Origin: Candidatus Woesebacteria bacterium RBG_16_42_24
GTDB lineage: Bacteria; Patescibacteriota; Microgenomatia; UBA8517
Reading direction: 5' to 3'
Length of the DNA stretch: 64,000 nt
Assembly: GCA_001792115.1 (NCBI GenBank)
Contig: MGFX01000001.1
Location: 240,606-304,605, forward strand
The position numbers and the translations under genes are program-made. Shown here piece after piece: positions 34,696 through 52,702 of this stretch (position 1 is the first letter of the stretch; the number at the start of each line of letters is the position of its first letter). Under the pieces are notes generated by a model. That model did no database searches. It was not told where the DNA came from and saw only the letters and a list, made by a program, of their open reading frames with translations.

Positions 34696-35004
34696 ATGCC
34701 GGTAGGAAGATTACGAGTCAAGCTAAAATCCTACGACCACCGTGTCATCGACGAGGCGGCAGGAAAGATATTGGATACGGCCCTGGCGACCGGAGCTAAA
34801 ATAGTTGGCCCCATTCCCCTCCCCACAACACGCACCATAATGAGCGTTAAAGAATCCCCTTTTACCGATAAAGATGCGCAAGAGCATTACGAGATGCTGG
34901 TCCATAAAAGGCTAATCGATATCATCGACCCCAGTGAGCGCACAATTGATTCCCTCTCCAATCTCGACCTCCCCGCAGGTGTCAGTATAGAAATCAAAAT
35001 GTAG
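34696..35004 (+). CDS. rpsJ: 30S ribosomal protein S10
   Basis: LKSYDH, GPIPLPT, HKRLIDI, DLPAGVSIEIKM. Confidence 0.98.
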   Translation: MPVGRLRVKLKSYDHRVIDEAAGKILDTALATGAKIVGPIPLPTTRTIMSVKESPFTDKDAQEHYEMLVHKRLIDIIDPSERTIDSLSNLDLPAGVSIEIKM

Positions 35005-35028
35005 TTTTACTACATTTTCTGACACCGA

Positions 35029-35172
35029 TTGCCCCTCCGAATCGCCCTTCGAGCCGTGTATGAATAATACGGGAAAGGCGAGAAGTAAGATTGTGTGGGG
35101 CAGGAGTTGCGATCGAAATCAAGATGTAGGGCGAAACTCCGTTTGCCCCTCCGAATCGCTCTTCGAGCCGTG
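35029..35172 (+). repeat. 30-bp direct repeat (35029-35058 and 35143-35172, 1 mismatch), each following an rpsJ 3'-end copy
   Basis: ttgcccctccgaatcgc(c/t)cttcgagccgtg occurs twice. Confidence 0.9.
35100..35129 (+). pseudogene. Remnant of the rpsJ 3' end (AGVAIEIKM*)
   Basis: gca gga gtt gcg atc gaa atc aag atg tag versus rpsJ AGVSIEIKM*; a third copy IEIKM* lies at 35809-35826. Confidence 0.8.
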
Positions 35173-35214: not shown

Positions 35215-35784
35215 ATGAAAAAGAATTCTTCCGATGAACGGGGTAGCGTTCCTGTAATAATCGGAGTAATTATTCTCGCGATAGTCGTATTTGGAATATC
35301 TTATTGGACCTACTTCAAATACTACAGACTCGCCTATACTGACAAAACCTATAATTTTTCACTAATGAATCGCAGAGGGTGGCACGAACTTCCAAAAGAA
35401 GAAGGCGTGTATTATTCATTGGGCACATCCGATGTTCCAGGCGGAAAGGTGGTATCGACCTTCAGGATATCGCCGATTACCCGGAAGGATGATACTAGCA
35501 TTACAGACTCTTCTTCATTCCAAAAAATATGCAGCGACCTAATTAAAGAAATAAACTACACAATCCTGGGCTGGTTTGATGTAAGGTATAGCGGTTTAGA
35601 GGGACATGTTTGTAAAAGTGAGGGAAAGGCTGCCGATATAGATAGAATAAACATTTTCAGTATCTATTTACTTATGAATCCGGGCGGGACATACGATTAT
35701 ATGATCTTCACGACTTATCCAAAAGGAAACCTAGTTGAGGAAGCGAAAGTGAATGAGATGTTGCGTTACTTCCACGCAGATTAA
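35215..35784 (+). CDS. Hypothetical membrane-anchored/secreted protein
   Basis: Charged leader ending ERG, then a hydrophobic helix and a soluble domain. Confidence 0.65.
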   Translation: MKKNSSDERGSVPVIIGVIILAIVVFGISYWTYFKYYRLAYTDKTYNFSLMNRRGWHELPKEEGVYYSLGTSDVPGGKVVSTFRISPITRKDDTSITDSSSFQKICSDLIKEINYTILGWFDVRYSGLEGHVCKSEGKAADIDRINIFSIYLLMNPGGTYDYMIFTTYPKGNLVEEAKVNEMLRYFHAD

Positions 35785-35870
35785 AAGTAGAGTTAATATT
35801 AATTTCCCATCGAGATTAAGATGTAGTTTCTCGCGCCAGCCTCGGAAAAGTTGTATAATCCGTCCCTGTT

Positions 35871-36386
35871 GTGACTAAAGAAGTCGCCATAACCCCTGAG
35901 AGCCAGCGTGAGCTGGTTAGGGCGTTTTTGGCAAAACTTGGAGGGGTTGCCATCGCGACGCCAGATATGAGTAGGGACTACAAATTTGTAGCCGTACTGC
36001 CTGAATTAGACGAATGGACTCGGCTTTTTTCGTATGACGGCGCTTCAGTAAAACCCGACTCTATATGGGAAAAATTACACATTCAGAATGTAAATATTAC
36101 TGACTCGACAATGATTTTTTTACGAATAGATGGCAATGTTGCAAAGACAAAAATTGTCGAGGTAGATACTGCCGGATGGGATGAGACTGATTTACAAAGA
36201 GGACACGTTTTGGGATTTAGAGAAAAACCGTTAGTTTTTGATAGGGCACAAAGGATTCTTAGTCATTTGAAAAAAACGGCCTCAAGATTCTTTGTGGTGG
36301 GGTTTCCCATAGACAATCCCAACGACCATAAGCTTATGGTTCCTATCAGAATGGGTGGGGACGATATAGGCGAAGACGATTTTTAA
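35871..36386 (+). CDS. Hypothetical protein
   Basis: 171-aa ORF; TATAAT at 35854-35859 within a cassette-type motif. Confidence 0.6.
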   Translation: MTKEVAITPESQRELVRAFLAKLGGVAIATPDMSRDYKFVAVLPELDEWTRLFSYDGASVKPDSIWEKLHIQNVNITDSTMIFLRIDGNVAKTKIVEVDTAGWDETDLQRGHVLGFREKPLVFDRAQRILSHLKKTASRFFVVGFPIDNPNDHKLMVPIRMGGDDIGEDDF

Positions 36387-36470
36387 AAAAGCAAAAACTA
36401 TTTTCCGCCTTCACCTACATTTTGGCGGATGAAATAGAAAGAAGGTCGAAAAAATCGTAATATAATCAAA

Positions 36471-36617
36471 ATGGAGAGAGAACAGCAGATTGTTGAAGCA
36501 AAACGAGTTTTGCGCCGACAACTTAGCCTTCGGGGTAAACCACATACGCGGCATATAAGGATGCACCGTCAGGCCGCCGAAGATAATCATAACAGACTCC
36601 CCGCCCCACGAATTTAA
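36471..36617 (+). CDS. Small basic hypothetical protein, 48 aa (not in ORF track)
   Basis: TATAAT 36461-36466, then ATG: MEREQQIVEAKRVLRRQLSLRGKPHTRHIRMHRQAAEDNHNRLPAPRI*. Confidence 0.4.
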   Translation: MEREQQIVEAKRVLRRQLSLRGKPHTRHIRMHRQAAEDNHNRLPAPRI

Positions 36618-36654
36618 GTGGCAACTTTAGCTTCAAAGGGGTAGAATCTAGAAA

Positions 36655-37095
36655 GTGTTAAAGGTGAATGACAAAGCTCCCGAGTTTAAACTACCCGATC
36701 AAAAGGGCAATTTACACAGCCTTAGCGATTATAAAGGGGGTTGGCTTTTGATTTATTTTTATCCGAAGGATTTTACTCCGGGTTGTACCAAAGAAGCCTG
36801 CTCATTCAGGGATAATTTTTCGCGCCTTAAAGACAAGCTGCAACTAGTTGGCATAAGCGGGGACAGCGTAGAAAGCCACAAAAATTTCAGCGAAAAGTAT
36901 AATTTACCTTTTACAATACTTTCCGATCCGGAAAGAAAAGCGATAAAAAATTACGGCACAAATGGACTGATTTTTGCCAAAAGAACTTCTTTTTTAATAA
37001 ACCCTCAAGGAACAATTGAGAAAATTTACGAAAAAGTCGATCCCACCACCCACGCCGAAGAAATCCTTAAAGACATTTCTTCCCTGACAGCTTAA
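36655..37095 (+). CDS. bcp: Peroxiredoxin (BCP family)
   Basis: YFYPKDFTPGCTKEACSFRD, LSD, RTSFLI. Confidence 0.93.
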   Translation: MLKVNDKAPEFKLPDQKGNLHSLSDYKGGWLLIYFYPKDFTPGCTKEACSFRDNFSRLKDKLQLVGISGDSVESHKNFSEKYNLPFTILSDPERKAIKNYGTNGLIFAKRTSFLINPQGTIEKIYEKVDPTTHAEEILKDISSLTA

Positions 37096-37190
37096 ATCAT
37101 CCTTTGAAAATCTGGCAAATTTAACCCCTAGAGAGCCTGCAACGTTAAAATTTTGGTTAATAATTATTTACGTTGTAAAATACGGGCAGA

Positions 37191-37664
37191 GTGACTGATA
37201 TAGACGCTTTAACCAATAAATCAAAAAAGGTAATCGACACAATTGAATATATCGATCTTGCAACCATAACCGAAGATGGAAAGCCCTGGAACTCACCTTT
37301 ATGGTTTGTAAGAGACGATAAGTACAACCTTTATTTTTACTCACCCAAATACACCCAACATTCAGAGAATATAAGAAACAACGGCAATGGATTTGTTGTT
37401 ATTTACGACTCGAGAGCTCCGGAAGGCACAGGATTCGGAGTCTATATGACGGTTGAAGTGAAAGAGCTAAATACGGTTTCCGAGGTCGACGAAGCCCTCA
37501 AATGGGTTTATAAGAAAAAGAAAAAGAAAAGGACACCGCAGGAGTTTTTGGGCAATTCCCCTAGAAGGATTTACAAGGTTACTCCCAAGGAGGCCTGGGT
37601 AAATGACGCTGAATTGAAAAATGGTTTTTACCTAGACTATCGAATTCCAATAAAACTTACATAA
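37191..37664 (+). CDS. Pyridoxamine 5'-phosphate oxidase-like FMN-binding protein
   Basis: LATITEDGKPWNSPL, S....HSENIRNN. Confidence 0.8.
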   Translation: MTDIDALTNKSKKVIDTIEYIDLATITEDGKPWNSPLWFVRDDKYNLYFYSPKYTQHSENIRNNGNGFVVIYDSRAPEGTGFGVYMTVEVKELNTVSEVDEALKWVYKKKKKKRTPQEFLGNSPRRIYKVTPKEAWVNDAELKNGFYLDYRIPIKLT

Positions 37665-37670
37665 ATAAAT

Positions 37671-38138
37671 ATGGGCAGTGTGAATAAGAAAAAACTAGTA
37701 ACTTTTTTAACCGGGGCTCGTGCAAACACCTATGCGGCTGGTAAGGGAAAGGTAAAACCAGTTTTTCCGGGCTCGACCCAGCTTGAATATAAGGAGGGAG
37801 ACTGGCTATATCGCGACATTTACAATTTGGGAAATAAAATCTTCGTGGGTCTTGAGACAGTCTATTTCAAGGGGAAACCCGTCTGGTCGATGTGCTATTA
37901 CGGAGATTTTAAAAAAATGACGGAAAAAGAAATTGATGAGATTCTGCGGGAAGCCTTAATTAAATACAAAGATAAAGTAAGACTTTGGTACCAGGTGGAG
38001 TGGAAAAACAAAAACTTCAAGTATATTTGCACACCCGACTCCCGAGAAGGCATAGAAGAAGTGTCCGGACTCGAGGAAATTTATAAAGACCGAGAGAAAG
38101 TTTATTATCTTTATTACGCCGGCGGCCTCATAGGCTAA
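37671..38138 (+). CDS. DUF5680-like protein
   Basis: TYAAG, YRDIY, G.ETVY..GKPVWSMCYYG, G.EEI. Confidence 0.6.
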   Translation: MGSVNKKKLVTFLTGARANTYAAGKGKVKPVFPGSTQLEYKEGDWLYRDIYNLGNKIFVGLETVYFKGKPVWSMCYYGDFKKMTEKEIDEILREALIKYKDKVRLWYQVEWKNKNFKYICTPDSREGIEEVSGLEEIYKDREKVYYLYYAGGLIG

Positions 38139-38220
38139 CGGCACATTCCTCGCCCCAGCCTCGGTCATATTTTTATTTGAACACTGGGAAATTCGAAGGC
38201 GGGAAGTGTTAAAATCAATT

Positions 38221-38904
38221 GTGAAATTTGACCCGGTTAAGCACTGGAACGATCGCCATTTCGAACTTCCAAAAAATAGAGATACTTCTTCTTACGCGAA
38301 AGACAAAGAAAAATTTTTTCCTCGAAATTCCCTAGTCTGTGATTTGGGTGGCGGTGTTGGAATAGACTCAAATTACTTTTTAGATAAAGGACATGAAGTC
38401 TACCTTCTGGACATTTCTGACTATGCGCTCAAGGCTGCCCGCAACACTGCGGTTTCAAAAGGCCTTGGCTCCCACCTCATTACCAAAGAGGTAGATTTTT
38501 CGGTAGGTATGTTTCCTCTGGAAGACGGTTTGGTCGATATTGTCTATTCAAGGCTTGCCCTTCATTACTTTCCCCTCGATCGTATGAAAGAAATATTTTC
38601 CGAAATTTATAGAATTTTAAAAAATGGAGGGAAGGCGTTCATAGCCGTAAAGTCGCCCGACGACAAAAGGGAAATGGGAGCCCTCAGAAAAATTGCAAAG
38701 GAAACAAGTCCTGGAATTTTTGACGAAAACGGCCTGATTAAAACTAGATTTACAAAAGTGCAGTACAAAACAGTTCTTAAAAAAGCCGGAGTGTTAAGTT
38801 TTGAAGTGCGAGATTGTGTTGAACATTTTGGTAAAGGTAAAGTTTATGTTAAATCCAAAGCAGAAAAACTTCTATATATAGAAATCATAATAAATAAAGT
38901 TTGA
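38221..38904 (+). CDS. Class I SAM-dependent methyltransferase
   Basis: DLGGGVG, LDIS, LALHYF, LKNGG; GTG 38221 chosen because TAAAAT lies at 38210-38215. Confidence 0.85.
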   Translation: MKFDPVKHWNDRHFELPKNRDTSSYAKDKEKFFPRNSLVCDLGGGVGIDSNYFLDKGHEVYLLDISDYALKAARNTAVSKGLGSHLITKEVDFSVGMFPLEDGLVDIVYSRLALHYFPLDRMKEIFSEIYRILKNGGKAFIAVKSPDDKREMGALRKIAKETSPGIFDENGLIKTRFTKVQYKTVLKKAGVLSFEVRDCVEHFGKGKVYVKSKAEKLLYIEIIINKV

Positions 38905-38957
38905 CTTTCGGGATTTTTAAATTAAGGGGTCCGGCCCATTCATAAATCTCAATTTTA

Positions 38958-39028
38958 ATCCTGAGTGAAATCGAAGGATTATAATCCCGAGCGAACTTGT
39001 TCTGAGTAACCTCGAAGGAGTCGAGGGA
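38958..39028. repeat. Cluster of family-A palindromic repeats, one nested inside another
   Basis: atcctgagtgaaatcgaaggat; tcccgagcgaac[ttgttctgagtaacctcgaagga]gtcgaggga. Confidence 0.65.
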
Positions 39029-39094
39029 CTTCTGGCAACTTTAGCCTCGAGAGAGTAGAGTACCTCAAAGTTATTTCATGGACAGGTTGGGCCA

Positions 39095-39121
39095 TTGACA
39101 ATATGACAAATTTATCATAAT
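39095..39121 (+). promoter_or_regulatory. TA promoter with palindromic operator
   Basis: TTGACA 39095-39100; inverted repeat tatgacaaa/tttatcata at 39102-39119. Confidence 0.6.
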
Positions 39122-39125
39122 ATAA

Positions 39126-39422
39126 ATGAAGTTAATTTTTGATCCTAGGGCTGAAAAGTTCCTGGATAAAATTAGGGACAAAGAAAGAACAAAGGTATTT
39201 GAATATATTCTTTTATTCGAGGAATACGGATTTGAACTTGATAACAGATACCTTAAGAAGGTAACGAAAAATATTTGGGAGTTAAGGCCTAAAAATATAA
39301 GACTATTTTTTATCAAGAGAGCCACAAATTATTTAATCGTTCACGCAATGTATAAAAAATCCCAGAAAATAACCAAGAAAACGCTAAAATTGTTAGAAAA
39401 AAGAATTAAAAGTTACCTATGA
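39126..39422 (+). CDS. RelE/HigB-like (Gp49) toxin
   Basis: YLKKV..NIWELRP..IRLFF, H...KKSQK; upstream of an HTH gene with 4-nt overlap. Confidence 0.85.
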   Translation: MKLIFDPRAEKFLDKIRDKERTKVFEYILLFEEYGFELDNRYLKKVTKNIWELRPKNIRLFFIKRATNYLIVHAMYKKSQKITKKTLKLLEKRIKSYL

Positions 39423-39730
39423 AAGCAAAAAAAATAGACACATCGAAATTCATTACTTTCCACGAGCTTAGAAGAAAGTGGATGAAAGATCCGGAGTTTG
39501 TAAGGGAGTGGGAAAAGTTAGAGCCCCACTATCAAATAGCAAGACAAATGGTTGGGGCCAGAATCAAAAAGAAAATGTCCCAGGAGGAACTTGCCAAAAA
39601 AATTGGAACCGGGCAGGCGGTAATTTCAAGACTCGAAGGAATGAATGCCAAGCCATCAATTTCACTTTTGAAAAGAGTTGCCGACGCATTGGACACACCA
39701 ATAAAAATAACAATTAACCCCGATCGGTAG
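39419..39730 (+). CDS. HigA-like XRE antitoxin
   Basis: MSQEELAKKIGTGQAVISRLE, PSISLLKRVADAL. Confidence 0.88.
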   Translation: MKAKKIDTSKFITFHELRRKWMKDPEFVREWEKLEPHYQIARQMVGARIKKKMSQEELAKKIGTGQAVISRLEGMNAKPSISLLKRVADALDTPIKITINPDR

Positions 39731-39788
39731 GCCATTCTAGATTCTGGCAACTTTAGCTTCAACCTCGGGAAAGTAGTAGAATATCCAA

Positions 39789-40415
39789 ATGCTAGTTTTT
39801 ATCGATGATTCCGGCGACCCCAGTCTAAACATAGAAAAAGGAGCAAGTAAATTTTTTGTTATCTGTTGTGTTGTGTTTGATGATGATTTGGAGGTTGAAA
39901 AAACGGCAGTTGCAATCAAAGAGCTAAGACGAAAACTCAAGTTTTCCGATAGAGTTGAATTTAAGTTTAACGGGTCCAGTTTTAAAACACGTATTGCCTT
40001 CCTACAAACCATCAAACTATTTTCATTTAAGATTCGAGCCCTGGTTGTGGACAAAAGAAAAATAAAAAGTGACCAATTAAAAAATGATAAACAATCTTTT
40101 TATAGCTACTTTATCAAAATGATCCTGCGATATAGTGGGGGGTCAATCGTTAATGCAAAAGTAAAAATAGACGGAAGCGGGGACAGAATATTCCGTAAAA
40201 GATTTCTAACGTATCTAAGAAAAGAACTTAATAGTAAACAAAAGAAAATTGTGAAGAATGTTAGATTGGTTGACTCTAAAACCAATGTATTAATTCAAAC
40301 TGCAGACATGGTTGCAGGTACAATTAGAAGGTACAAAGAAAAAGAAAAGTTAGATGCTCCCAAATACTGGAATATTATAAAAAATAAAATTGATGACTGT
40401 TGGGATTTTAAGTAA
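39789..40415 (+). CDS. DUF3800-family protein (RNase H-like acidic motifs)
   Basis: FIDDSGD at N-terminus, EFKF, VDSK..VLIQTADMVAG. Confidence 0.8.
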   Translation: MLVFIDDSGDPSLNIEKGASKFFVICCVVFDDDLEVEKTAVAIKELRRKLKFSDRVEFKFNGSSFKTRIAFLQTIKLFSFKIRALVVDKRKIKSDQLKNDKQSFYSYFIKMILRYSGGSIVNAKVKIDGSGDRIFRKRFLTYLRKELNSKQKKIVKNVRLVDSKTNVLIQTADMVAGTIRRYKEKEKLDAPKYWNIIKNKIDDCWDFK

Positions 40416-40419
40416 GCAC

Positions 40420-40448
40420 AAAAAAATCCCAAATTTCTTTGGGATTTT
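40420..40448. terminator. Bidirectional-looking intrinsic terminator
   Basis: aaaatcccaaa-tttc-tttgggatttt with an A-run on the left. Confidence 0.7.
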
Positions 40449-40525
40449 CCGACCACGTCTCTAGACGGGTAGTTCCCGACACGCCACCATCCGGTAACAG
40501 TTCGAGATACAGGTCTTTGTATCTA
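40420..40525 (-). ncRNA. Candidate small RNA convergent with DUF3800 gene 1
   Basis: Minus-strand TTGACA-16-TATATT (40555-40528), internal hairpins including CC-GGAU-GG, and an intrinsic terminator at 40420-40448. Confidence 0.55.
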
Positions 40526-40658
40526 TGAATATACTAAATTTGGTATATTTGTCAACCCCGATTCCAAAACCTCCCTCTTTCTATGCCCTCAGCACTGTGT
40601 ACTAAGACTATGTTATGAACTATGCTCTATGCGCTATCTATAGTAGAATACGGGCAGA

Positions 40659-41474
40659 ATGAAAAAGCAAAACAGCACCCCCAAACTTCTTCCGGAAAAA
40701 GTAATTAGACCCCGGGTTTCTCCCGAGGAAGTCGGTAGGTACTATCTGAAATCAGAATTAGGACGCATCTTTCCTGGACAAAAAGAGATTAGGGAAAATC
40801 TGGACAGAAGGATTGATAAACTCGATAGCTTTGAATTCTGGAGACTCCTTCAGGCTCTATCCTTCGCCTACAGATTAAATTATATATTTCTTTTCGTGGG
40901 AAATTCCGGTTATTCATGGAGCGAGGAGACATGGCGTATTTCGCGCCTCACACTTACTGGGATAAACCCCGACATAAATGCAATCACTTTTTCCCCCGAA
41001 ATTAGTAGGTCTCCTATCAAATTTCGCGATTTTCTTAAGAAATATTTTGCCGATCACCCCCAAGACGATCCTCAGAAGCTTAATGAGTTTCGCCCGAGCC
41101 AAAGGCCCATTGACTACCCCAGGATAATATTAAGGGAAGACGAAGCTAATATACTTCTTCTGGATGGATCAAATAGGCTAATTGAGCTAATGTTTAGACA
41201 AGAGGAGGAGGTAGTTGCTTTTATCGGCAGAAAGAATGGTAAAAAGGAGAAATTTAGAATAGGAGATAGCACCTTCTTACTTTTGAGAAATCTTTATGAA
41301 AAAGGGGATTCCCAGGAGAGGCGTGCGGTGTTAAAGGTTGTAAAGATGCTTTTGGGCATAAGCCTGGATGGCAGACGGGCGGTTGAGAATTACTGGGTAA
41401 GACATCCTCGTGACGAAAAGCTAAAGGCAGTCGGCCGAAGCCTATTAAAAGCACATACTTCTAAGTCGACATAA
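40659..41474 (+). CDS. Hypothetical protein with a ParB/Srx-like motif
   Basis: PRIILRE...LLLDGSNRL resembles the ParB DGxHR motif. Confidence 0.5.
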   Translation: MKKQNSTPKLLPEKVIRPRVSPEEVGRYYLKSELGRIFPGQKEIRENLDRRIDKLDSFEFWRLLQALSFAYRLNYIFLFVGNSGYSWSEETWRISRLTLTGINPDINAITFSPEISRSPIKFRDFLKKYFADHPQDDPQKLNEFRPSQRPIDYPRIILREDEANILLLDGSNRLIELMFRQEEEVVAFIGRKNGKKEKFRIGDSTFLLLRNLYEKGDSQERRAVLKVVKMLLGISLDGRRAVENYWVRHPRDEKLKAVGRSLLKAHTSKST

Positions 41475-41580
41475 CTTCCAAATCTTACCTTCCCTATGCA
41501 CTCTGATCTATGTACTAAACACTAATAACATTCTGGCAACTTTAGCCTTAACTCCGGAAAAGTGCTAAAATGCGGGCCAA

Positions 41581-42216
41581 ATGGCATATATTTTTCTCGA
41601 CGAATCGGGTGACCTAGGATTTAACCCCAAAAAGAAAAGTTCAAAATATTTTGTAGTAACGGTTTTGACTACATCAGACAAGAAACCCATAGAAAAATTA
41701 GTTAAGAAGGTTCATTCTAAGCTGAGAAAGAAAATAAGAAAGTTAAGTGGAGGCATTCTCCACGCCTATAAAGAGAAACCTTCCACTAAAAAAAGGATCC
41801 TTTCCGGCCTTGCTGGTATTGATTGTCTAATAATGGCTATTTATCTAAACAAATCAAAGGTATACACCAAACTGAAGGAAGAAAAACATATTTTATATAA
41901 CTATGTGGCCAATATTCTTTTAGATAGGATTATGAGAAAACGATTTACTTTCTCAAGAAGCAAAATATTCTTAATTGCCTCCAAAAGGGAGACTAACAAG
42001 TTTTTAAACGAAAATTTTAAAAACTATCTCAAAAATCAGGTATCAAATAGGCATAAAGTAGATATGGCAGTAGAGATAAAAACCCCAGCCCAAGAAAGGT
42101 CTTTGCAGGCAGTCGACTTTGTATCCTGGTCGATATTCAGAAAATACGAGCATGGAGACGAAACCTATTATAATTTGATTAAGAGCAAGGTAATTGAAGA
42201 AAATTCTCTCTTCTAA
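41581..42216 (+). CDS. DUF3800-family protein
   Basis: IFLDESGDLG at N-terminus, SLQAVDFVSWSIFRKYE. Confidence 0.82.
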   Translation: MAYIFLDESGDLGFNPKKKSSKYFVVTVLTTSDKKPIEKLVKKVHSKLRKKIRKLSGGILHAYKEKPSTKKRILSGLAGIDCLIMAIYLNKSKVYTKLKEEKHILYNYVANILLDRIMRKRFTFSRSKIFLIASKRETNKFLNENFKNYLKNQVSNRHKVDMAVEIKTPAQERSLQAVDFVSWSIFRKYEHGDETYYNLIKSKVIEENSLF

Positions 42217-42218
42217 AA

Positions 42219-42285
42219 CGCAAAACCCTGTGCGCTATTTCTGAGCAACCATCCGGAAGCCCACGCACAAGGATTTACTTGCAAC
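42219..42285 (-). ncRNA. Candidate small RNA convergent with DUF3800 gene 2
   Basis: Minus-strand TATAAT (42295-42290); long stem enclosing the same CCGGAUGGU hairpin; a G-U pair works only on the minus strand. Confidence 0.5.
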
Positions 42286-42410
42286 CCCTATTATACATAG
42301 CTGTCAAGTCATTTACCATACCCTCTAAACCTGAATCATAAATCTAAGTTCGTTTGCTTTCCCTGGCAAATTTAGCCTCAACTCCGGAAAAGTGCTAAAA
42401 TACGGGCAGG

Positions 42411-42779
42411 ATGCAGAAGAAATATCGCATTGGTGAAATTGCCGCACTTACAGAAAAGATCAAAAAGTTTAGAGATGAGCGGGATTGGAAACAATTTCAT
42501 AACCATAAAGATATGGCGATTTCCCTCGTTTTAGAGGCTACGGAAGTTTTAGAACACTTTCAGTGGAGAACTCCAGAGGAGGGTGAGGAACGGGCAAGAA
42601 GCCATAAAGAAGAACTCGCGGATGAACTGGCAGATGTAACCTATTTTCTCTTCGAACTTGCCGACAACCTCAAAATAGATTTAGGTAAGGCTTTAATTTC
42701 AAAATTAGAAAAGAACGTAACTAAATATCCTATAGAAAAATCAAAGGGTAAAAATTTAAAATATACGGAATTAAAATAA
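42411..42779 (+). CDS. MazG-like nucleotide pyrophosphohydrolase
   Basis: FRDERDWKQFH, EATEVLEHFQW, DELADV, N..KYP. Confidence 0.9.
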   Translation: MQKKYRIGEIAALTEKIKKFRDERDWKQFHNHKDMAISLVLEATEVLEHFQWRTPEEGEERARSHKEELADELADVTYFLFELADNLKIDLGKALISKLEKNVTKYPIEKSKGKNLKYTELK

Positions 42780-42928
42780 ATAAACTGACCTCTTTGTAAA
42801 AATAGCCCCAAACCTTCTGGCAAATTTAGCCTTAAGGTCTTCACTAAAGATTCTGGAAAAGTGATAAACTGACCATTGACAATATTTCTAGATTTGAATA
42901 AATTGTAATAACCAAATAAAACCCGAAT

Positions 42929-44125
42929 ATGGATACTGTTCTAATTCCGACTACTCATATTAAAAGTACATACGAAGAAGTTCCAATAACCAATTTTTCA
43001 TCTATAAATTCCAACACCCCGTTAGATTCGTTAAATTTAAATTGGAGGGAAAGAGACCTTCCGGAAAGAACTAGAACTAAGCACGTACATAGACTTCACC
43101 CGTATTTAGGTAAGTTTATCCCCCAGCTCGTAGAAATTTTTTTAAGAAAATACAAACCTAAACTTGTATATGATCCTTTCGTGGGCAGTGGTACAACCCT
43201 GGTGGAAGCAAATACGCTTGGCATTGATTCGGTGGGAACCGATATTTCTGCTTTTAACATTTTACTTTCAAAAGTAAAAACTGATAAATATAACATCCCG
43301 GCCTTAGAAAAAGAGGTTAATGAAATCTTGCGAAGATTGTCTTTGTATAAAAGCAAATTTTCAAAGGACGAGAAAGTAAACAAATTATTTCAGACAGATA
43401 ATCCTTATATTCACGAGTGGTTTGCACCAAACACCCAGAAAGAACTGCTTTGTTATTTAAGATTGATAAAAGATTATACCTATCAGGATTTATTAGAGAT
43501 TATTTTGTCCCGCGCTGCCCGTTCTGCCCGTTTGGTTACACATTATGATTTAGATTTTCCGAAGAAACCCCAGACGACACCTTACTTTTGTTATAAACAC
43601 AGAAGAATATGCAAACCAACAGAAGAAGCATATAAATTTTTATATCGGTATACTATTGACACTCTGCAAAGAATAAAAGAATACGCAAAAATTAAAACGG
43701 GCGCGAAAGTGGTTTTGAATCATGGCGATTCTAGGGAAGTAAAACTACCGAAGGGAATTGATATGGTTTTTACCTCACCGCCTTATATAGGGCTTATTGA
43801 TTACCACGAACAACATAGATATGCATATGAATTTTTAGGTCTAAAAAATAATGAGACAAAGGAGATTGGGCCTGCGAAAAAGGGCCAATCTGATCAAGCA
43901 AGAAAAGAGTATATGAAAGGGATAAATGATGTATTGTTACATACCCGTGATTATGTCGCTAAGGATGGGTTGGCAATTATTGTGGTAAATGATAAATTTA
44001 GACTCTATGCACCTGAAGAGGTGGGTTTTAAATCTGTTGGCAAAGTGGAAAGACACGTCAATAGGCGCACCGGTAGAAGAAATGGTGCATTTTATGAAAG
44101 TATTTTAATCTGGCAAAAAACATGA
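42929..44125 (+). CDS. Type II amino-DNA methyltransferase, probably m4C
   Basis: HPYLGKFIPQ, motif I DPFVGSGTT, motif IV TSPPY. Confidence 0.9.
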   Translation: MDTVLIPTTHIKSTYEEVPITNFSSINSNTPLDSLNLNWRERDLPERTRTKHVHRLHPYLGKFIPQLVEIFLRKYKPKLVYDPFVGSGTTLVEANTLGIDSVGTDISAFNILLSKVKTDKYNIPALEKEVNEILRRLSLYKSKFSKDEKVNKLFQTDNPYIHEWFAPNTQKELLCYLRLIKDYTYQDLLEIILSRAARSARLVTHYDLDFPKKPQTTPYFCYKHRRICKPTEEAYKFLYRYTIDTLQRIKEYAKIKTGAKVVLNHGDSREVKLPKGIDMVFTSPPYIGLIDYHEQHRYAYEFLGLKNNETKEIGPAKKGQSDQARKEYMKGINDVLLHTRDYVAKDGLAIIVVNDKFRLYAPEEVGFKSVGKVERHVNRRTGRRNGAFYESILIWQKT

Positions 44126-44958
44126 CAAAAAAAGAAGAAATGAAGAAAGCCATCCAGTCTGTCATCAAATCGATGATGGATGGAGTTATGAATAAGGTAT
44201 TAATTGAAGATCCTTTCATTGCGGAAAACCATAAAGCCAAAAAACCGCTATATGCAGCACTTGTTCCTGATGAAATTTTTAAAGGATCTCATTTTGAAAG
44301 AAGATTTGTAACTCCTTTCGGAAATGCCTGGGAAGAACTGGCAATCGTTGCGGCTAATCAGGGCCTTGGTTTTGGGGAAAGAGCACACAGTATAACAGGG
44401 AGAATAAATGCAGAAAGATTGCGTAGAATTCAACAAATATTAAACACTCTTGAACACCCGGAAAAAGGGAAGAAGAGAATTAAGCCCAATTGGACGCAGG
44501 AACTTAAATATGTTTTGGAAGGCAAGAGTCCTAAGGTCGTTCCCACAACTGTTGTTTGTGACATTTATGTTGAAGATAGAAAAATCGACAAAAAGTATAC
44601 GTTTGAATTAAAAGCACCATTGCCCAATAGTGACCAAACAAAAGTCAGTAAGGAAAAGCTTTTAAAGCTATATAGCATGGATCCATTGGAAATTGATGCT
44701 GCTTATTATGCCTTACCTTATAATCCTTACGGCAAACGAGATGATTACTCCTGGAGCTTCCCTGCGCGCTGGTTCGATATGAAAAAGGATGAAGTTGTGC
44801 TAATCGGAGACGAATTTTGGGAAAAGATAGGAGGAACAGGCACCTATACAGCATTTATAAATGCTGTAAATGAAATTGGTAAAGAGTATAAAGATAGAAT
44901 CTATAGAGAATTTTTAGGTATAGAGCCACCAAGCTCTTTAGCGATGGTCAAGCTTTGA
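44122..44958 (+). CDS. Type II restriction endonuclease, TdeIII/MjaII-like
   Basis: ERRFVTPFG..WE, D...FELKAPLPN, PYNPYG, GDEFWEKIGG; overlaps the MTase stop. Confidence 0.75.
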   Translation: MTKKEEMKKAIQSVIKSMMDGVMNKVLIEDPFIAENHKAKKPLYAALVPDEIFKGSHFERRFVTPFGNAWEELAIVAANQGLGFGERAHSITGRINAERLRRIQQILNTLEHPEKGKKRIKPNWTQELKYVLEGKSPKVVPTTVVCDIYVEDRKIDKKYTFELKAPLPNSDQTKVSKEKLLKLYSMDPLEIDAAYYALPYNPYGKRDDYSWSFPARWFDMKKDEVVLIGDEFWEKIGGTGTYTAFINAVNEIGKEYKDRIYREFLGIEPPSSLAMVKL

Positions 44959-45075
44959 ATAATTCTTAAGCTTATCCAAAAAATTAAAATTTGACCTTTG
45001 AGAAATTTGCGTACGATAATCGTAAATTTGAAGCTAGCTTATATTTTATTCATCAACAAATAAAAGTCATACCAG

Positions 45076-45104
45076 TTGACAAGCCTTTCTATCGGTGATA
45101 GATT
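45076..45104 (+). promoter_or_regulatory. sigma70 promoter of the retron locus
   Basis: TTGACA (45076-45081), 17 nt, TAGATT (45099-45104). Confidence 0.7.
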
Positions 45105-45109
45105 GAAAA

Positions 45110-45688
45110 GTGGAGGATGTAATTCCTTTCCGCTCTTTTAAATCTCACCCAGCTATCAATTAACCCTATCGCTCTATAAATGAGCAAACCAGCTTGTCTG
45201 GTTACTTATGGTGTCTGGAAAGACACCGCAGAGGTTTCGACCTCTGCCTTTTCAGGGGCCAAATATGGCACTCTGGAGAAAGTTATCGTTGATATCCGTG
45301 TAACCTCCTAGAAGAGGCACGTATAGCGACTTGTGCAAAGAAGTTTAGGATTGATCCAGTTTTTTCCTGCAGAGGGCCAAATTGAGGCACATGGTATCTG
45401 CAATACGAAACCATGTTAGACCGAGGTGAGTATTATGAAAAGAGTAAAATTAGACACGATTGTCGAATTCTTCGACAGTCTAGTTTCGGAAGAAAGGCTG
45501 GATCTTGAAACTAGGGGCCAAATAGCGAAAGCTATTAAAGATCTTTCACACGGTTTAGCTATAAAAGACCTGAAACAGGTAAGCAAAGCTGTGGATAGAT
45601 TGTCAAAAAGCCTGCTCAATAATACGTTTCGATCCTAAGCTTTCTTATAAGGTTCCAAACTGGTGCTTTATAAGAGAGCTTAGTTTTT
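45110..45688 (+). ncRNA. Highly structured retron-associated RNA overlapping a small ORF (ncRNA/mRNA hybrid candidate)
   Basis: Back-to-back hairpins, e.g. ggtgtct-GGAA-agacacc 45210-45227, gcagaggt-TTCG-acctctgc 45228-45247, aatagc-GAAA-gctatt 45521-45536, 18-bp stem 45635-45683. Confidence 0.7.
45435..45638 (+). CDS. Small helical protein embedded in the retron RNA, putative effector
   Basis: SD GAGGTG 45423-45428, ATG 45435; 67 aa, amphipathic helices. Confidence 0.65.
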   Translation: MKRVKLDTIVEFFDSLVSEERLDLETRGQIAKAIKDLSHGLAIKDLKQVSKAVDRLSKSLLNNTFRS

Positions 45689-45695
45689 GGCAATC

Positions 45696-45992
45696 ATGAA
45701 TTACGGAAAAGCTATTAAAATATTGCGAAGCGCCAAGAATCTTGAACAACAAGAGCTTGCCAAGAAAATAGGCCTTGATTCTAGCTACATTTCTTTAATT
45801 GAAAATGGTAAAAGAAAACCAAGTCCAAAAACCATTGAAAAAATTTCAGAAAGCTTGTCTATTCCTAAACACCTGTTGCTACTTCTTGCTTCCGATGAAA
45901 AGGATTTGAAAAACGTTCCAAAAAACGAGTCCGCAACAATTGGAAAACAATTGTTAGAAATTCTTATTTCCTCCCAGAATGTCGGGGCATGA
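45696..45992 (+). CDS. XRE-family HTH protein of the retron locus
   Basis: GKAIKILR...QQELAKKIGLDSSYISLIENGKRKPS; overlaps the RT start. Confidence 0.9.
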   Translation: MNYGKAIKILRSAKNLEQQELAKKIGLDSSYISLIENGKRKPSPKTIEKISESLSIPKHLLLLLASDEKDLKNVPKNESATIGKQLLEILISSQNVGA

Positions 45993-47004
45993 ACACCAGC
46001 TAAATATCCCAAGTCCATTTCCAATTTTATCTGTCAATAAATTGGCGTTTATATTAAGAACAAAGCCAAATGAATTAAAGAAATTATCAGAAAACGCCGG
46101 AAACTACTATACCCCATTCGATAGGAAACAAATCAAAGATAACGGAAAGGTAAAGTGGCGGCATATAGATAATCCTGCACCTAAACTTAAGAAAATTCAG
46201 CAAAAAATTAATAGGGTACTTCTGAAGGCTAAGGTAGAGTCGTTGCCAACCGGTATGACTGGGGGTATTAAGGGTAGATCAATTTTTACGAATGCCGCCC
46301 AACATCTTAATCAAAAAGCTGTGGTGACCATTGATTTGAAGGACTGTTTTCCAAGAACCAGTAACAAGCGAATTTTTAGAGTCTGGAGAAACCATCTGGG
46401 TACCAGTGAATGTGTAGCAAATATACTGACAAAGTTAACTACATTTCAGAGAAGATTGCCTCAGGGTTCCCCCACAAGTTCCTCGTTGTGTAATCTAGCG
46501 CTCTTTCCTCTTTTCAAAAAGACAAAAAGGTATTGTCAAAAAGAAAAATTCAACCTAACGTTGTACGTAGACGATATCACTATATCTGGCCAAACTATTC
46601 CGATACGACTCGCGATTGGAAGAATTATAAATTTCATTCAAGAAGAGGGTTATGCTGTCAGAAGGAACAAGATAAAAATTATGACGGCAAGTGTTCAACA
46701 AAAAACGACCGGATTAATTGTCAATAAACAATTGTCAGTTTCTGCAAAAGCACGTGAGGAGATTCGAAAAGAAATATTTATTTTATCAAGACAAGAAATG
46801 TTTTCCTCTAAAAGAATGAGATCTCTTTGGGGTAAAATTAATTACATTAAGAAGGTTTCACCAAAACAGGGGGGGAAATTAGCCAGCTTAGCACACACTC
46901 TTTTGTTGGATACACTAGCGTCTCATAGTTATGAAAATGTGACTTCGGAGAAGGAAGTGACAAGAGAGTGTAAAAATACAAGAAGACATAAATATAGTCT
47001 ATAA
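45979..47004 (+). CDS. Retron-type reverse transcriptase
   Basis: NAAQH (retron region X NAxxH), DLKDCFP, LPQGSPTSS, YVDD, TTGLIV (VTG-like region Y); 341 aa, no maturase or endonuclease domain. Confidence 0.9.
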   Translation: MSGHEHQLNIPSPFPILSVNKLAFILRTKPNELKKLSENAGNYYTPFDRKQIKDNGKVKWRHIDNPAPKLKKIQQKINRVLLKAKVESLPTGMTGGIKGRSIFTNAAQHLNQKAVVTIDLKDCFPRTSNKRIFRVWRNHLGTSECVANILTKLTTFQRRLPQGSPTSSSLCNLALFPLFKKTKRYCQKEKFNLTLYVDDITISGQTIPIRLAIGRIINFIQEEGYAVRRNKIKIMTASVQQKTTGLIVNKQLSVSAKAREEIRKEIFILSRQEMFSSKRMRSLWGKINYIKKVSPKQGGKLASLAHTLLLDTLASHSYENVTSEKEVTRECKNTRRHKYSL

Positions 47005-47112
47005 AAACTGGTTGAGTATTTTTTTTGATATAATTCTTTTGATGTATAAACCTTCGCCATACTTTCCAGAAATCTTGCTATAATCTTCTCATGAAGCAGA
47101 CAGAAAATATCA

Positions 47113-47178
47113 ATGACTATCAACAAAAAATGGCATTTGGAAAACAGGATGCCTGAAAATTTGACCCCATGGTTTTAG
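47113..47178 (+). pseudogene. Possible truncated gene remnant (MTINKKWHLENRMPEN...)
   Basis: Protein-like start that ends shortly after an aaatttgacccc motif, followed by 7-mer repeats. Confidence 0.25.
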
Positions 47179-47345
47179 TGAATCGTGAATAGTGGCTAGT
47201 GATTGGGTTATATTCGCTAAAAATCAATTTTACTACCCCAGCGCTTTATGTATGATAAGATGATATATCATACACAGATTTGATTCAATTCAAAATTATT
47301 CAAAATCGATTAAATTTTCCACCTCGGAGGTGGTATAATCCTGAT

Positions 47346-47591
47346 ATGAGCGCTAATAAATTAGATTATTTGATAAAATTAACCTACGACAAGGACTATA
47401 AAGGTTATGTGGCCGACGTAGTGAATCTGTATGGCTGTATGTCTCAGGGAAAGACAAAGAAAGAGGCTCTGGAGAATGCTGAAAAAGCCATAAAAGCCTA
47501 CATGGAAGCAGTTGCTAAAGAAGGAAAAAATATAGAATTTACCAAAAGAGCTGTAGATATAAACATTCCCCGCTCGTTAGTTAATGCCTAG
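47346..47591 (+). CDS. HicB-like antitoxin
   Basis: GYVADV..L.GCMSQGKTKKEALENAEKAI; TATAAT 47334-47339 supports ATG 47346. Confidence 0.88.
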   Translation: MSANKLDYLIKLTYDKDYKGYVADVVNLYGCMSQGKTKKEALENAEKAIKAYMEAVAKEGKNIEFTKRAVDINIPRSLVNA

Positions 47592-47805
47592 ATTTGCTAA
47601 TATCTCCGGAAGAAAAGCTGTCAAAGCATTTCTGAAATTTGGCTACGTCCACAGTCACTCCTCCGGCGATCATGCAATTCTTCAAAAGAAAGGCGCACCT
47701 ACCTTATCGATCCCATTACACAAGGAGATAGCTCCGTTTTTATTAAAGTCTCAAATTAAAAGAGCGAATATTAGGCCCGATGATTTCCTGAAAGCTTTAA
47801 AATGA
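47584..47805 (+). CDS. HicA-like mRNase toxin
   Basis: KFGY.....GDHAIL, SIPLHKEI...LLKS. Confidence 0.85.
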   Translation: MPRFANISGRKAVKAFLKFGYVHSHSSGDHAILQKKGAPTLSIPLHKEIAPFLLKSQIKRANIRPDDFLKALK

Positions 47806-51679: not shown

Positions 51680-51708
51680 TTGACGTCTGAAGCTAAATGA
51701 TTTATAAT
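51680..51708 (+). promoter_or_regulatory. sigma70 promoter for the rplC operon
   Basis: TTGACG, 17 nt, TATAAT. Confidence 0.75.
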
Positions 51709-51774
51709 CTTGGCATCAATGGAGGTGACTAGCCAGAAATAACCTCTACATAAGAAGTAGGATGTGCCAGTTGA

Positions 51775-51797
51775 GGGCGCCTCCGGCGCCTTTTTTT
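51775..51797 (+). terminator. Leader terminator/attenuator before rplC
   Basis: agggcgcc-tcc-ggcgcc followed by T7. Confidence 0.6.
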
Positions 51798-51808
51798 GTG
51801 AGAAAAAG

Positions 51809-52702
51809 ATGATCAATGCTATTTTAGCCTCAAAAGGGAAAATGGGAGCGGCCTTCGTCAAAGGCCGAAGGTTTGCTGTGACAAAAGTTCTGGCCGGCCC
51901 GTGCGTGGTCATCCAGGTTAAAAAAATGGAAAAAGACGGATATTGGGCGGTCCAGCTTGGCTTCGGAGAAAGAAGAATTAAGAATATTAGTAAGGCCATG
52001 CAAGGACACCTCAAGTTAAGTCAAAACTCAAAAGTCAAAACTCAAAGCTCTAATCTCAAATCTCAAAACACCCTCCCCAGATTTATAAGAGAGGTAAGGC
52101 TAGAAGAAGAACCAAAAATGAATGTTGGAGATGAAGTTAAAGCCTCCGACGTTTTTAATGTCGGAGATATTGTTAGTGTTTACGGCATTTCCAAGGGTAA
52201 GGGTTTTCAGGGAGTGGTAAAGCGCTGGGGATTTGCGGGGGGTCCCAGAACCCACGGACAATCTGACCGTGAGCGAGCACCGGGCTCAATCGGCCAAGGA
52301 ACAACTCCGGGCAGGGTTTATAAAGGTAAACATATGGCAGGAAGAATGGGAGGGGATAGTGTTACTGTTAAAAATTTGCAAGTGGTTTCTATTGAGCCTG
52401 AAACAGGACTGATTGAGATTTCGGGTCCTGTACCGGGGGATACGGGAGGCCTTCTTAAGATAACGAGAACAGCTAAGGGCGAGCTTGAAGGAATTCAGGA
52501 AGTAGCGGCCCAGGTTGTAGAAGGAGAGCCCTCCTCCGCCGAGGCTACGGAGGACAAGGTCCCCGCCGACGCTGGCCTGCCTGCCGGCAAGGCAGGAGCT
52601 GTGGCGGGCAAGCCCGCCGACGAGGCTCCAACCGAAAGCGGCGCACCCGCCGCAACTAAAGAGGTCCCAGCTGCTAAAGGAGGTCAAAGTGACAAAAGCT
52701 AA
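51809..52702 (+). CDS. rplC: 50S ribosomal protein L3 with repeat-derived insertion and tail
   Basis: DGYWAVQLG, SKGKGFQGVVKRWG, RAPGSIG, MAGRMG; start ATG 51809. Confidence 0.97.
   Translation: MINAILASKGKMGAAFVKGRRFAVTKVLAGPCVVIQVKKMEKDGYWAVQLGFGERRIKNISKAMQGHLKLSQNSKVKTQSSNLKSQNTLPRFIREVRLEEEPKMNVGDEVKASDVFNVGDIVSVYGISKGKGFQGVVKRWGFAGGPRTHGQSDRERAPGSIGQGTTPGRVYKGKHMAGRMGGDSVTVKNLQVVSIEPETGLIEISGPVPGDTGGLLKITRTAKGELEGIQEVAAQVVEGEPSSAEATEDKVPADAGLPAGKAGAVAGKPADEAPTESGAPAATKEVPAAKGGQSDKS

Follow-up and report, generated by a model that had tools for sequence, protein, structure and literature searches.

A row of unrelated genes between rpsJ and rplC

We analysed a stretch of 64,000 nucleotides (nt) on contig MGFX01000001.1 of Candidatus Woesebacteria bacterium RBG_16_42_24, hereafter the window, in which a row of unrelated genes, interspersed with copies of one repeat of about 45–50 base pairs (bp), occupies the gap between the core genes rpsJ and rplC. 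The genome comprises 873 kb in 7 contigs and is given as 98% complete. In the usual S10 operon rpsJ and rplC are direct neighbours; here the gap from rpsJ (34696–35004) to the ATG of rplC (51809) is 16,808 nt long. Its GC content is 38%, against 45–46% for the flanking core genes, and it holds 24 open reading frames (ORFs) on the plus strand and three on the minus strand, the part from 35215 to 47805 being entirely plus. A Pfam scan of 25 gap ORFs found no integrase or transposase among the products.

To place this gap among others, we surveyed relatives, in which rpsJ was found in 58 of 60 and up to 20 kb downstream of it was taken for 54 of those 58, four being omitted at contig ends. In the 50 relatives holding both genes, the gap ranged from 56 to 15,381 nt, with a median of 902, and exceeded 1 kb in 21. 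The rplC gene has its own promoter and a conserved leader, which are also present in the loci of relatives, and the gap is therefore presumably tolerant of insertions. Two relatives recur in the comparisons below: L202, a metagenome contig, and G001, a genome of the same genus. The features of the gap are listed here in window positions; for repeat copies, the -35 and -10 elements are given with the length of their spacer, followed by the distance to the start codon.

34696–35004 (+): rpsJ, the left core gene of the hotspot
35110–35129 (+): copy of the rpsJ 3' end, closing a ~110-bp element (35020–35129); sequence match
35807–35826 (+): further copy of the rpsJ 3' end; over 25 nt it is 88% like the end of rpsJ in L202
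35827–35870 (+): variant copy, TCGCGC-17-TATAAT, 11 nt, GTG of ORF 35871; a homologous copy in G001 fronts another gene
36471–36617 (+): small ORF of 48 aa, truncated relative to its G001 homolog (~100 aa)
36618–36654 (+): short-form copy, TGGCAA-17-TAGAAT, 7 nt, GTG of BCP
36655–37095 (+): BCP/AhpC peroxiredoxin, 82% DNA identity to L202
37112–37190 (+): hairpin-split copy fronting the PNPOx-like gene; both ends match the copy after BCP in L202, which fronts gene X
37191–38138 (+): PNPOx-like and DUF5680 genes (Pfam), with TAAATATGGGCAGT, which resembles the right end of the repeat, before the likely GTG at 37680
38145–38220 (+): variant copy with an insert in the spacer (alignment); TAAAAT, 5 nt, GTG of the methyltransferase
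38221–38904 (+): class I S-adenosylmethionine methyltransferase (domain match)
39032–39061 (+): short-form copy, TGGCAA-17-TAGAGT, no start codon behind; shares 16 identical nt with the L202 sequence ahead of BCP
39092–39730 (+): toxin-antitoxin (TA) pair, Gp49/RelE-like and helix-turn-helix (HTH), with its own TTGACA-17-TAATAT promoter
39744–39788 (+): long-form copy, TAGCTT-17-TAGAAT, 6 nt, ATG
39789–40560 (+): DUF3800 gene, with the known antisense DUF3800-IX RNA (40447–40515, −) and a minus-strand promoter (40555–40528)
40641–40658 (+): right half only, TAGAAT ACGGGCAGA ATG
40659–41474 (+): 271-aa protein without a Pfam family; only weak leads to a ParB-like fold
41533–41580 (+): long-form copy, TAGCCT-17-TAAAAT, 9 nt, ATG of the second DUF3800 gene (41581–42216)
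42363–42410 (+): long-form copy, TAGCCT-17-TAAAAT, 9 nt, ATG of the MazG-like gene (42411–42779); 44 of 50 nt match an L202 copy before an unrelated gene
42817–42870 (+): split, degenerate copy, no start codon behind; followed by a type II restriction-modification (R-M) operon (42929–44958) with its own TTGACA promoter at 42876
44987–45009 (+): second junction word, AAATTTGACCTTTG, with a -35-like TTGACC; here the window rejoins L202 after gene X, and the word recurs at 47157 and 47834
51688–52702 (+): rplC, the right core gene of the hotspot (ATG 51809), with its own sigma-70 promoter and leader

An earlier note, made from the letters of the window, had named the cargo of this row, and its names held in Pfam and PADLOC searches, which gave BCP, PNPOx-like, DUF5680, methyltransferase, the Gp49/HTH pair, two DUF3800 proteins, MazG-like and type II R-M. 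The first DUF3800 unit is common to other genomes of the class, from its ATG to beyond the DUF3800-IX RNA.

The repeat is confined to the gap

The pattern TGGCAAMTTTA(G/A)C was found in seven exact copies (36619, 37113, 39033, 39745, 41534, 42364 and 42818), all intergenic and on the plus strand, just as the earlier note had reported. The note had seen no further copies in the window, and a search allowing up to one mismatch returned the same number, seven matches, all in the array (shuffle mean 0.34; seven was reached in 0 of 100 shuffles). In the whole-genome pattern search all seven exact copies fell inside 36619–42830, that is 6.2 kb of the gap, and the pattern is not spread evenly before core genes. 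Allowing one mismatch across the genome gave 11 matches, of which the four outside the array all lacked the right half, and allowing two gave 63 raw pattern matches. A weight matrix was built from six ungapped copies, four from the window and two from relatives; it scored its own four window copies at 47–66 bits and the next-best genome site at 15 bits.

The repeat is about 45–50 bp long, and its left conservation edge lies 1–2 nt before TGGCAA (eight copies). Identity between copies runs over this length as far as the start codon (42 of 45 nt, and 44 of 50 with the L202 copy). Looser members were found at 35827, 38145 and 40641, and the right half precedes the starts 35871, 38221 and 40659, as had been noted before. 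Three copies (37112, 38145 and 42817) are split at the centre. The earlier account of two copies split by hairpins stood for the 37112 copy and needed amendment otherwise: a third split copy lies at 38145–38220, and the insert at 42836–42852 forms only a weak hairpin. Inserted stem-loops occur in 3 of about 10 copies, none folding beyond shuffles.

Searches for a wider spread of the repeat yielded several candidates that were rejected. No such motif array was found in the 54 rpsJ-downstream loci of relatives. A 13-mer occurred in 24 of 60 relatives as 1–3 scattered copies, and the 10 loci inspected all lay in long ORFs; an 18-mer occurred in 2 of 124 family genomes, both times within dnaG; a 17-mer of the right half gave a raw match in 1 of 124. 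The TCGC variant with one mismatch was present in 6 of 124, namely G001 and five genomes with the match in coding DNA (crude gene calls). Scanning metagenome contigs gave 72 loci with one true relative (L202), the rest being without the right half; a genome-collection scan gave one locus, also without the right half, and in viral contigs (8 and 4 loci) both halves never occurred together. The possibility that the repeat is a coding remnant, its minus strand reading E-A-K-V-A, was rejected on the nearly invariant third codon positions between copies.

Intact copies are shaped like sigma-70 promoters

The -35 consensus of the lineage, taken from 41 rplC promoters (40 from relatives and one from this genome), is TTGC, located 17 nt ahead of TATAAT. 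Long copies of the repeat carry TAGCCT, TAGCTT or TCGCGC at exactly this -35 position, and short copies, which are 9 nt shorter, carry TGGCAA there instead. Both length forms, when intact, keep the 17-nt spacing, in two registers (TGGCAA-17-TAGAAT and TAGCCT-17-TAAAAT); split copies keep the -10 box and lack a matching -35. Between the -10 box and the start codon there are 5–11 nt, which leaves no room for a Shine-Dalgarno sequence. These results support that intact copies have the shape of sigma-70 promoters, a promoter role being supported by this geometry, and the gene behind a copy is likely transcribed from it as a near-leaderless message.

A terminator-like site was sought at every copy and none was found. 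Three other readings of the sequence were tried and rejected. A sigma-54 promoter has GG-N10-GC, and the repeat has GG-N8-GC; a consistent antisense promoter starting from TTGCCA has a fitting -10 box only in some copies; and with the present rplC promoter, of which the repeat might have been a copy, only the reversed core is in common.

Gene content changes at the repeat in a relative

The earlier note proposed a gene-capture platform in which the motif is at once a recombination junction and a leaderless promoter, or alternatively a shared regulator site, and it expected gene differences between genomes to break at a junction. The junction part was supported by one clear and one weaker comparison. 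L202 is the one syntenic relative among the 72 scanned loci, with core genes 78–85% identical, and its order is rpsJ, two other ORFs, a short form, BCP, a full repeat, gene X, the AAATTTGACCTTTG word and a DEAD helicase. The copy after BCP has matching ends in L202 and in the window, but from the following start codon onward the sequence is that of gene X in the one and of the PNPOx-like gene in the other. About 8 kb of the window (37191–44986) occupies the place of gene X, and the two genomes rejoin at 44987. Gene X was searched for in this genome and not found. In G001 it is present with 81% DNA identity, behind the variant of the repeat that precedes ORF 35871 here.

The weaker case concerns ORF 36471, whose homolog in G001 is longer; similarity ends about 20 nt to the left of the copy at 36619, and the G001 assembly is fragmented and without rpsJ. 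Elsewhere, homologs of the cargo share DNA only from the ATG or the -10 box on, without the left half, among the matches listed (29 loci), and a repeat was found on either side of 0 of 27 BCP homologs. Together the L202 and G001 comparisons support that the repeat is a junction at which genes change.

Other rows carry other repeats

At least two further rows of small genes with their own repeated words were found in this genome, at 132–137 kb of contig C1 and 149–157 kb of contig C6. A different genus carries, in the same rpsJ–rplC gap (L022), an unrelated repeat of 55–87 nt in three copies. Since the words differ between hotspots and even at one hotspot, a local promoter origin of the repeats fits better than the fixed site of one enzyme.

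What the boundary repeats on C4 and C6 have in common with the repeat is its 9-base core, TTTAGCYTC (there as TTAGCYYCR), which lies 3–15 nt before a -10 box there too. This core is a candidate site of a DNA-binding protein of this lineage. A smaller row beside a tRNA gene (C4:13500–17450) was also observed to carry a repeated element of ~60–100 bp with TTAGCYTC ahead of a -10 box. The core often lies inside promoter spacers in this genome, in G001 and in other relatives, including before tRNA genes, and it occurs three times in a long non-coding stretch at C1:8777–9189.

A promoter that may serve as a point of exchange

The closest model comes from T4-type phages. Their promoter early stem-loops (PeSLs), described by Arbiol et al. 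2010 (PMC2839356), are recurring sigma-70 promoters that contain stem-loops, mark insertions and deletions and yield mini-circles; PeSL cassettes are also treated by Comeau et al. 2014 (PMC4122927). We suggest, with about an even chance of being right, that the repeat is a hotspot promoter that also provides shared homology through which, after DNA uptake, the host's recombination swaps single-gene units. Occasionally a promoter in this position would have captured a new ORF at its start codon, and selection for expression would have kept the spacing. Different strains would then carry different genes behind the same 45–50 bp, and crossovers between copies on incoming DNA may have built and rearranged the row, as has been shown for PeSL cassettes in these phages. 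Where a unit brought a promoter of its own, as the TA and R-M units do, the preceding copy may have been left to decay. Intact ComEA–ComEC, DprA and RecA are encoded in the genome.

Several observations weigh against exchange by homology. Copies of 45–50 bp, often diverged, are short for RecA-driven exchange, and the sole clear comparator stands at 78–85% DNA identity, at which breakpoints are blurred by age. For two of the seven copies (39033 and 42818) no start codon follows, and the downstream TA and R-M operons have TTGACA promoters of their own, at 39095 and 42876; that each gene is fronted by the motif, as first proposed, is thus overstated. Intact copies lack a terminator, unlike PeSLs. 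The TARAAT box 5–11 nt before the start codon is present in the array as the earlier note had it, and is no distinctive trait, a -10 box at this spacing being common across the genome: it precedes 314 of 841 genes in crude calls, compared with 171 of 3000 random ATGs. In this genome four unrelated genes, and in L202 a fifth, are preceded by TAAAATRCGGGC (once TAGAAT) at a spacing of 9 nt, which accounts for 51 of the 314 -10-to-start spacings in the genome; precision of this kind would be compatible with a site-specific enzyme as well. Copies of the rpsJ 3' end, of which this genome has two at the head of the gap and which occur in 6 of 54 relatives, indicate that a second process, of the insertion type, has acted there.

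The core TTTAGCYTC adds a further point on this side. It occurs 17 times in strictly intergenic DNA, against a mean of 1.5 over 119 permutations, none of which reached 17. The intergenic count was 16 against 0–1 for seven synonymous-codon variants, and in the pooled loci of relatives 15 against 0–3; in 400 kb of G019 there was no enrichment (2 against 0–3), and the intergenic counts include the array copies. Enrichment of the core outside the array is unexplained by the homology model and keeps a regulator or host-factor site in play.

An enzyme-based origin was weighed, in which the repeat is recognised by a site-specific recombinase that works in trans or has meanwhile been lost, either a large serine recombinase of the family or host XerC/D. 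Units would have been integrated singly by crossover at one fixed point close to the start codon, and each site would double as a promoter, much as in an integron-like array. The sharp edges on both sides and the identical 9-nt spacing before five unrelated genes speak for such an enzyme, as do three centre-split copies and a TTTAGC...GCTAAA inverted pair in 3 of 8 copies. Large serine recombinases are encoded in 89 of 124 other family genomes, and the core resembles the zinc-domain motif of the LI serine integrase, TTTAGTATC, varying at the two positions that are reported as tolerant (PMC3783163). The genome itself, at 98% completeness, gave no match to a serine recombinase or resolvase profile (PF07508, PF00239), and the inverted pair spans 29 bp rather than the ~40–50 bp of serine att sites. 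Beside 30 serine recombinase genes of the family the core was not enriched, with one match in 24.8 kb and 0–5 for controls. Likeness to the zinc-domain motif was accordingly set aside as a resemblance only, geometry and enrichment both being against it.

The tyrosine recombinases offer little more to this explanation. Two PF00589 proteins are encoded far from the array, and their best matches are XerC and XerD; against the integron integrase profile TIGR02249 they scored 126 and 46 bits, below the cut-off of 265. No integron integrase was found in the genome by profile search, and the description of the array as integrase-free was borne out, only XerC/D-like enzymes being present. A loose pattern for dif/Xer sites gave no convincing dif-like site. 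We also folded the DNA of 12 sequences on both strands and compared them with shuffles: the long copies gave z of -1.2 to +0.5, ten sequences lay between -1.2 and +1.4, and the best z of a short-form stretch in L202 was -2.0. An attC-like hairpin was thus unsupported, the copies folding no better than shuffles, and there was no significant single-strand hairpin. Rfam gave no match at the repeat copies. Different arrays also carry different words, and we regard a site-specific recombinase as an unlikely source of the row.

No better placed, in our estimate, is a regulated promoter kept by selection, an explanation that we consider improbable. Here a host protein would read TTTAGCYTC near the promoters of accessory genes, the repeat would be a passenger, and after DNA uptake a double crossover in the core genes on either side would renew the row. 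The intergenic enrichment of the core in permutations, synonymous variants and pooled relatives, together with its position 3–15 nt before the -10 box in the C4 and C6 arrays, agrees with this, and hotspots free of mobile elements do turn over through recombination in flanking core genes according to Oliveira et al. 2017 (PMC5635113). Identity between copies over 45–50 bp, including the bases up to the start codon, exceeds the need of a binding site, however, and no function is common to the cargo. The swap seen in L202 falls within the row and at the repeat. In 400 kb of G019 there is no enrichment of the core, and the intergenic matches here include the array copies.

A bolder proposal, which we hold to be doubtful, is an integrase-free gene capture: a host factor reading TTTAGCYTC would join incoming ORFs that lack a promoter, precisely at the start codon, to a resident promoter repeat upstream, giving immediate leaderless expression, with each hotspot having its own repeat. 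Very unlikely is a tiny non-autonomous mobile promoter, similar to repetitive extragenic palindromes or miniature inverted-repeat transposable elements and moved locally by a Y1 (HUH) transposase with copies before ORFs being kept, for although the unit is discrete, some copies have complementary ends of 3–4 bp (CCTG/CAGG, TCTG/CAGA), the genome encodes two Y1/RAYT-like genes, one of them followed by the core and a hairpin, and the head of the gap holds a small element found across the class and, at 35126, a hairpin led by GTAG, all copies sit in one 7-kb stretch in one orientation where mobile repeats would scatter and flip, no target duplication lies beside them and none has a stable hairpin.

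Relation to known systems

Taking exchange at a shared promoter as the preferred reading, the repeat works most like the PeSL cassettes and is not a member of them, being chromosomal, shorter, terminator-free and near-leaderless. In both, repeated sigma-70-like promoter elements lie between unrelated accessory genes of a hypervariable region, stem-loops may sit between the -35 and -10 elements (in three copies here), and there is no dedicated recombinase. Gene differences between relatives fall at the element in both as well, in our array, on a small sample, clearly so in L202 and to within 20 nt in G001. PeSLs number about 50 per phage genome and measure ~100 bp, whereas this repeat is found in about 10 copies of 45–50 bp at one locus of a bacterial chromosome, with the start codon 5–11 nt after the -10 box and no room for a Shine-Dalgarno sequence. 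Promoter activity and mini-circles have been shown for PeSLs.

Integron cassettes are normally read from a single Pc promoter, their attC sites end in RYYYAAC and GTTRRRY, and clusters of attC sites lacking integron integrases (CALINs) need no integrase nearby. The array resembles sedentary integron arrays and CALINs in its co-oriented single genes or small operons (TA, R-M, defence and housekeeping extras), in the right edge of the repeat, which abuts the next start codon, and in a centre that varies in length. It is nevertheless not an integron: the repeat is promoter-shaped, and RYYYAAC/GTTRRRY ends, a bottom-strand hairpin and a genomic IntI are absent. An alignment of 13 copies and half-copies contained no GTT right end, in agreement with the earlier statement that the motif lacks attC-type symmetry.

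Variable content between two conserved core genes, the lack of an integrase and the presence of competence genes are shared with gene-transfer hotspots without mobile elements, for which crossovers are placed in the flanking core genes (PMC5635113). These hotspots differ from the array in that an internal repeat here marks at least one swap. The same difference separates the array from the minimal mobile elements of Neisseria, which are comparable, with crossovers in flanking core genes. Attachment-site arrays of large serine recombinases are unlike it in the span of the inverted pair, which is present here in 3 of 8 copies, and in having a cognate recombinase in the genome. The literature search, whose coverage of subscription journals was incomplete, turned up no account of comparable arrays in Patescibacteria or Woesebacteria.

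Patescibacteria have tiny genomes with fast gene turnover, and how single genes are gained and expressed without integrons or many mobile elements is an open problem. If the preferred reading is true, promoter and swap point in one repeat would solve gain and expression in one step, and the PeSL principle would be carried from T4-type phages to a bacterial chromosome. The rpsJ–rplC gap can be easily located in any assembly.

Other features of the gap

The leader before rplC (51688–51808, and in 49 relatives) consists of a promoter, a TGGAGGTGG box and a GGCGCC...GGCGCC hairpin with a T run, and is a candidate attenuator of the split S10 operon. At the other end of the gap, the ~110-bp non-coding element at 35020–35129, also found elsewhere in this genome (C1:197278–197349) and at the loci L217–L235, has a conserved core and variable inverted arms. 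Across many genomes of the class it lies at the ends of genes (rpsJ, rpoD, gyrB, secA) and at promoters; where it lies at rpsJ, it is followed by a copy of 20–30 nt of the rpsJ 3' end. The copy at 35020–35129 had no Rfam match.

Within the row, the TA unit (39092–39104) and the R-M unit (42873–42885) start with the same 13 bases, CCATTGACAATAT. A word at unit ends, AAATTTGACC(C/T), with a -35-like TTGACC, was observed at 44987, 47157 and 47834, in G001 (contigs C61 and C66) and in L202; four of its six copies in the genome are in this gap, one of them coding. After the second DUF3800 gene, a conserved stretch (42217–42310), common to homologs elsewhere, ends in an antisense promoter-like sequence; it had no Rfam match and is probably another DUF3800-linked RNA.

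Downstream of the row lies a retron-like type VI system (45080–47004, plus strand), with a small protein at 45426–45638 and PADLOC matches to HTH_VI (E 7e-24) and RT_VI (E 1e-77). The retron RNA may lie in the long non-coding stretch upstream of its genes, which gave no Rfam match. Further downstream is a HicB–HicA pair (47280–47805, plus strand), close DNA homologs of which are found in many genomes of the class, in a different context each time.

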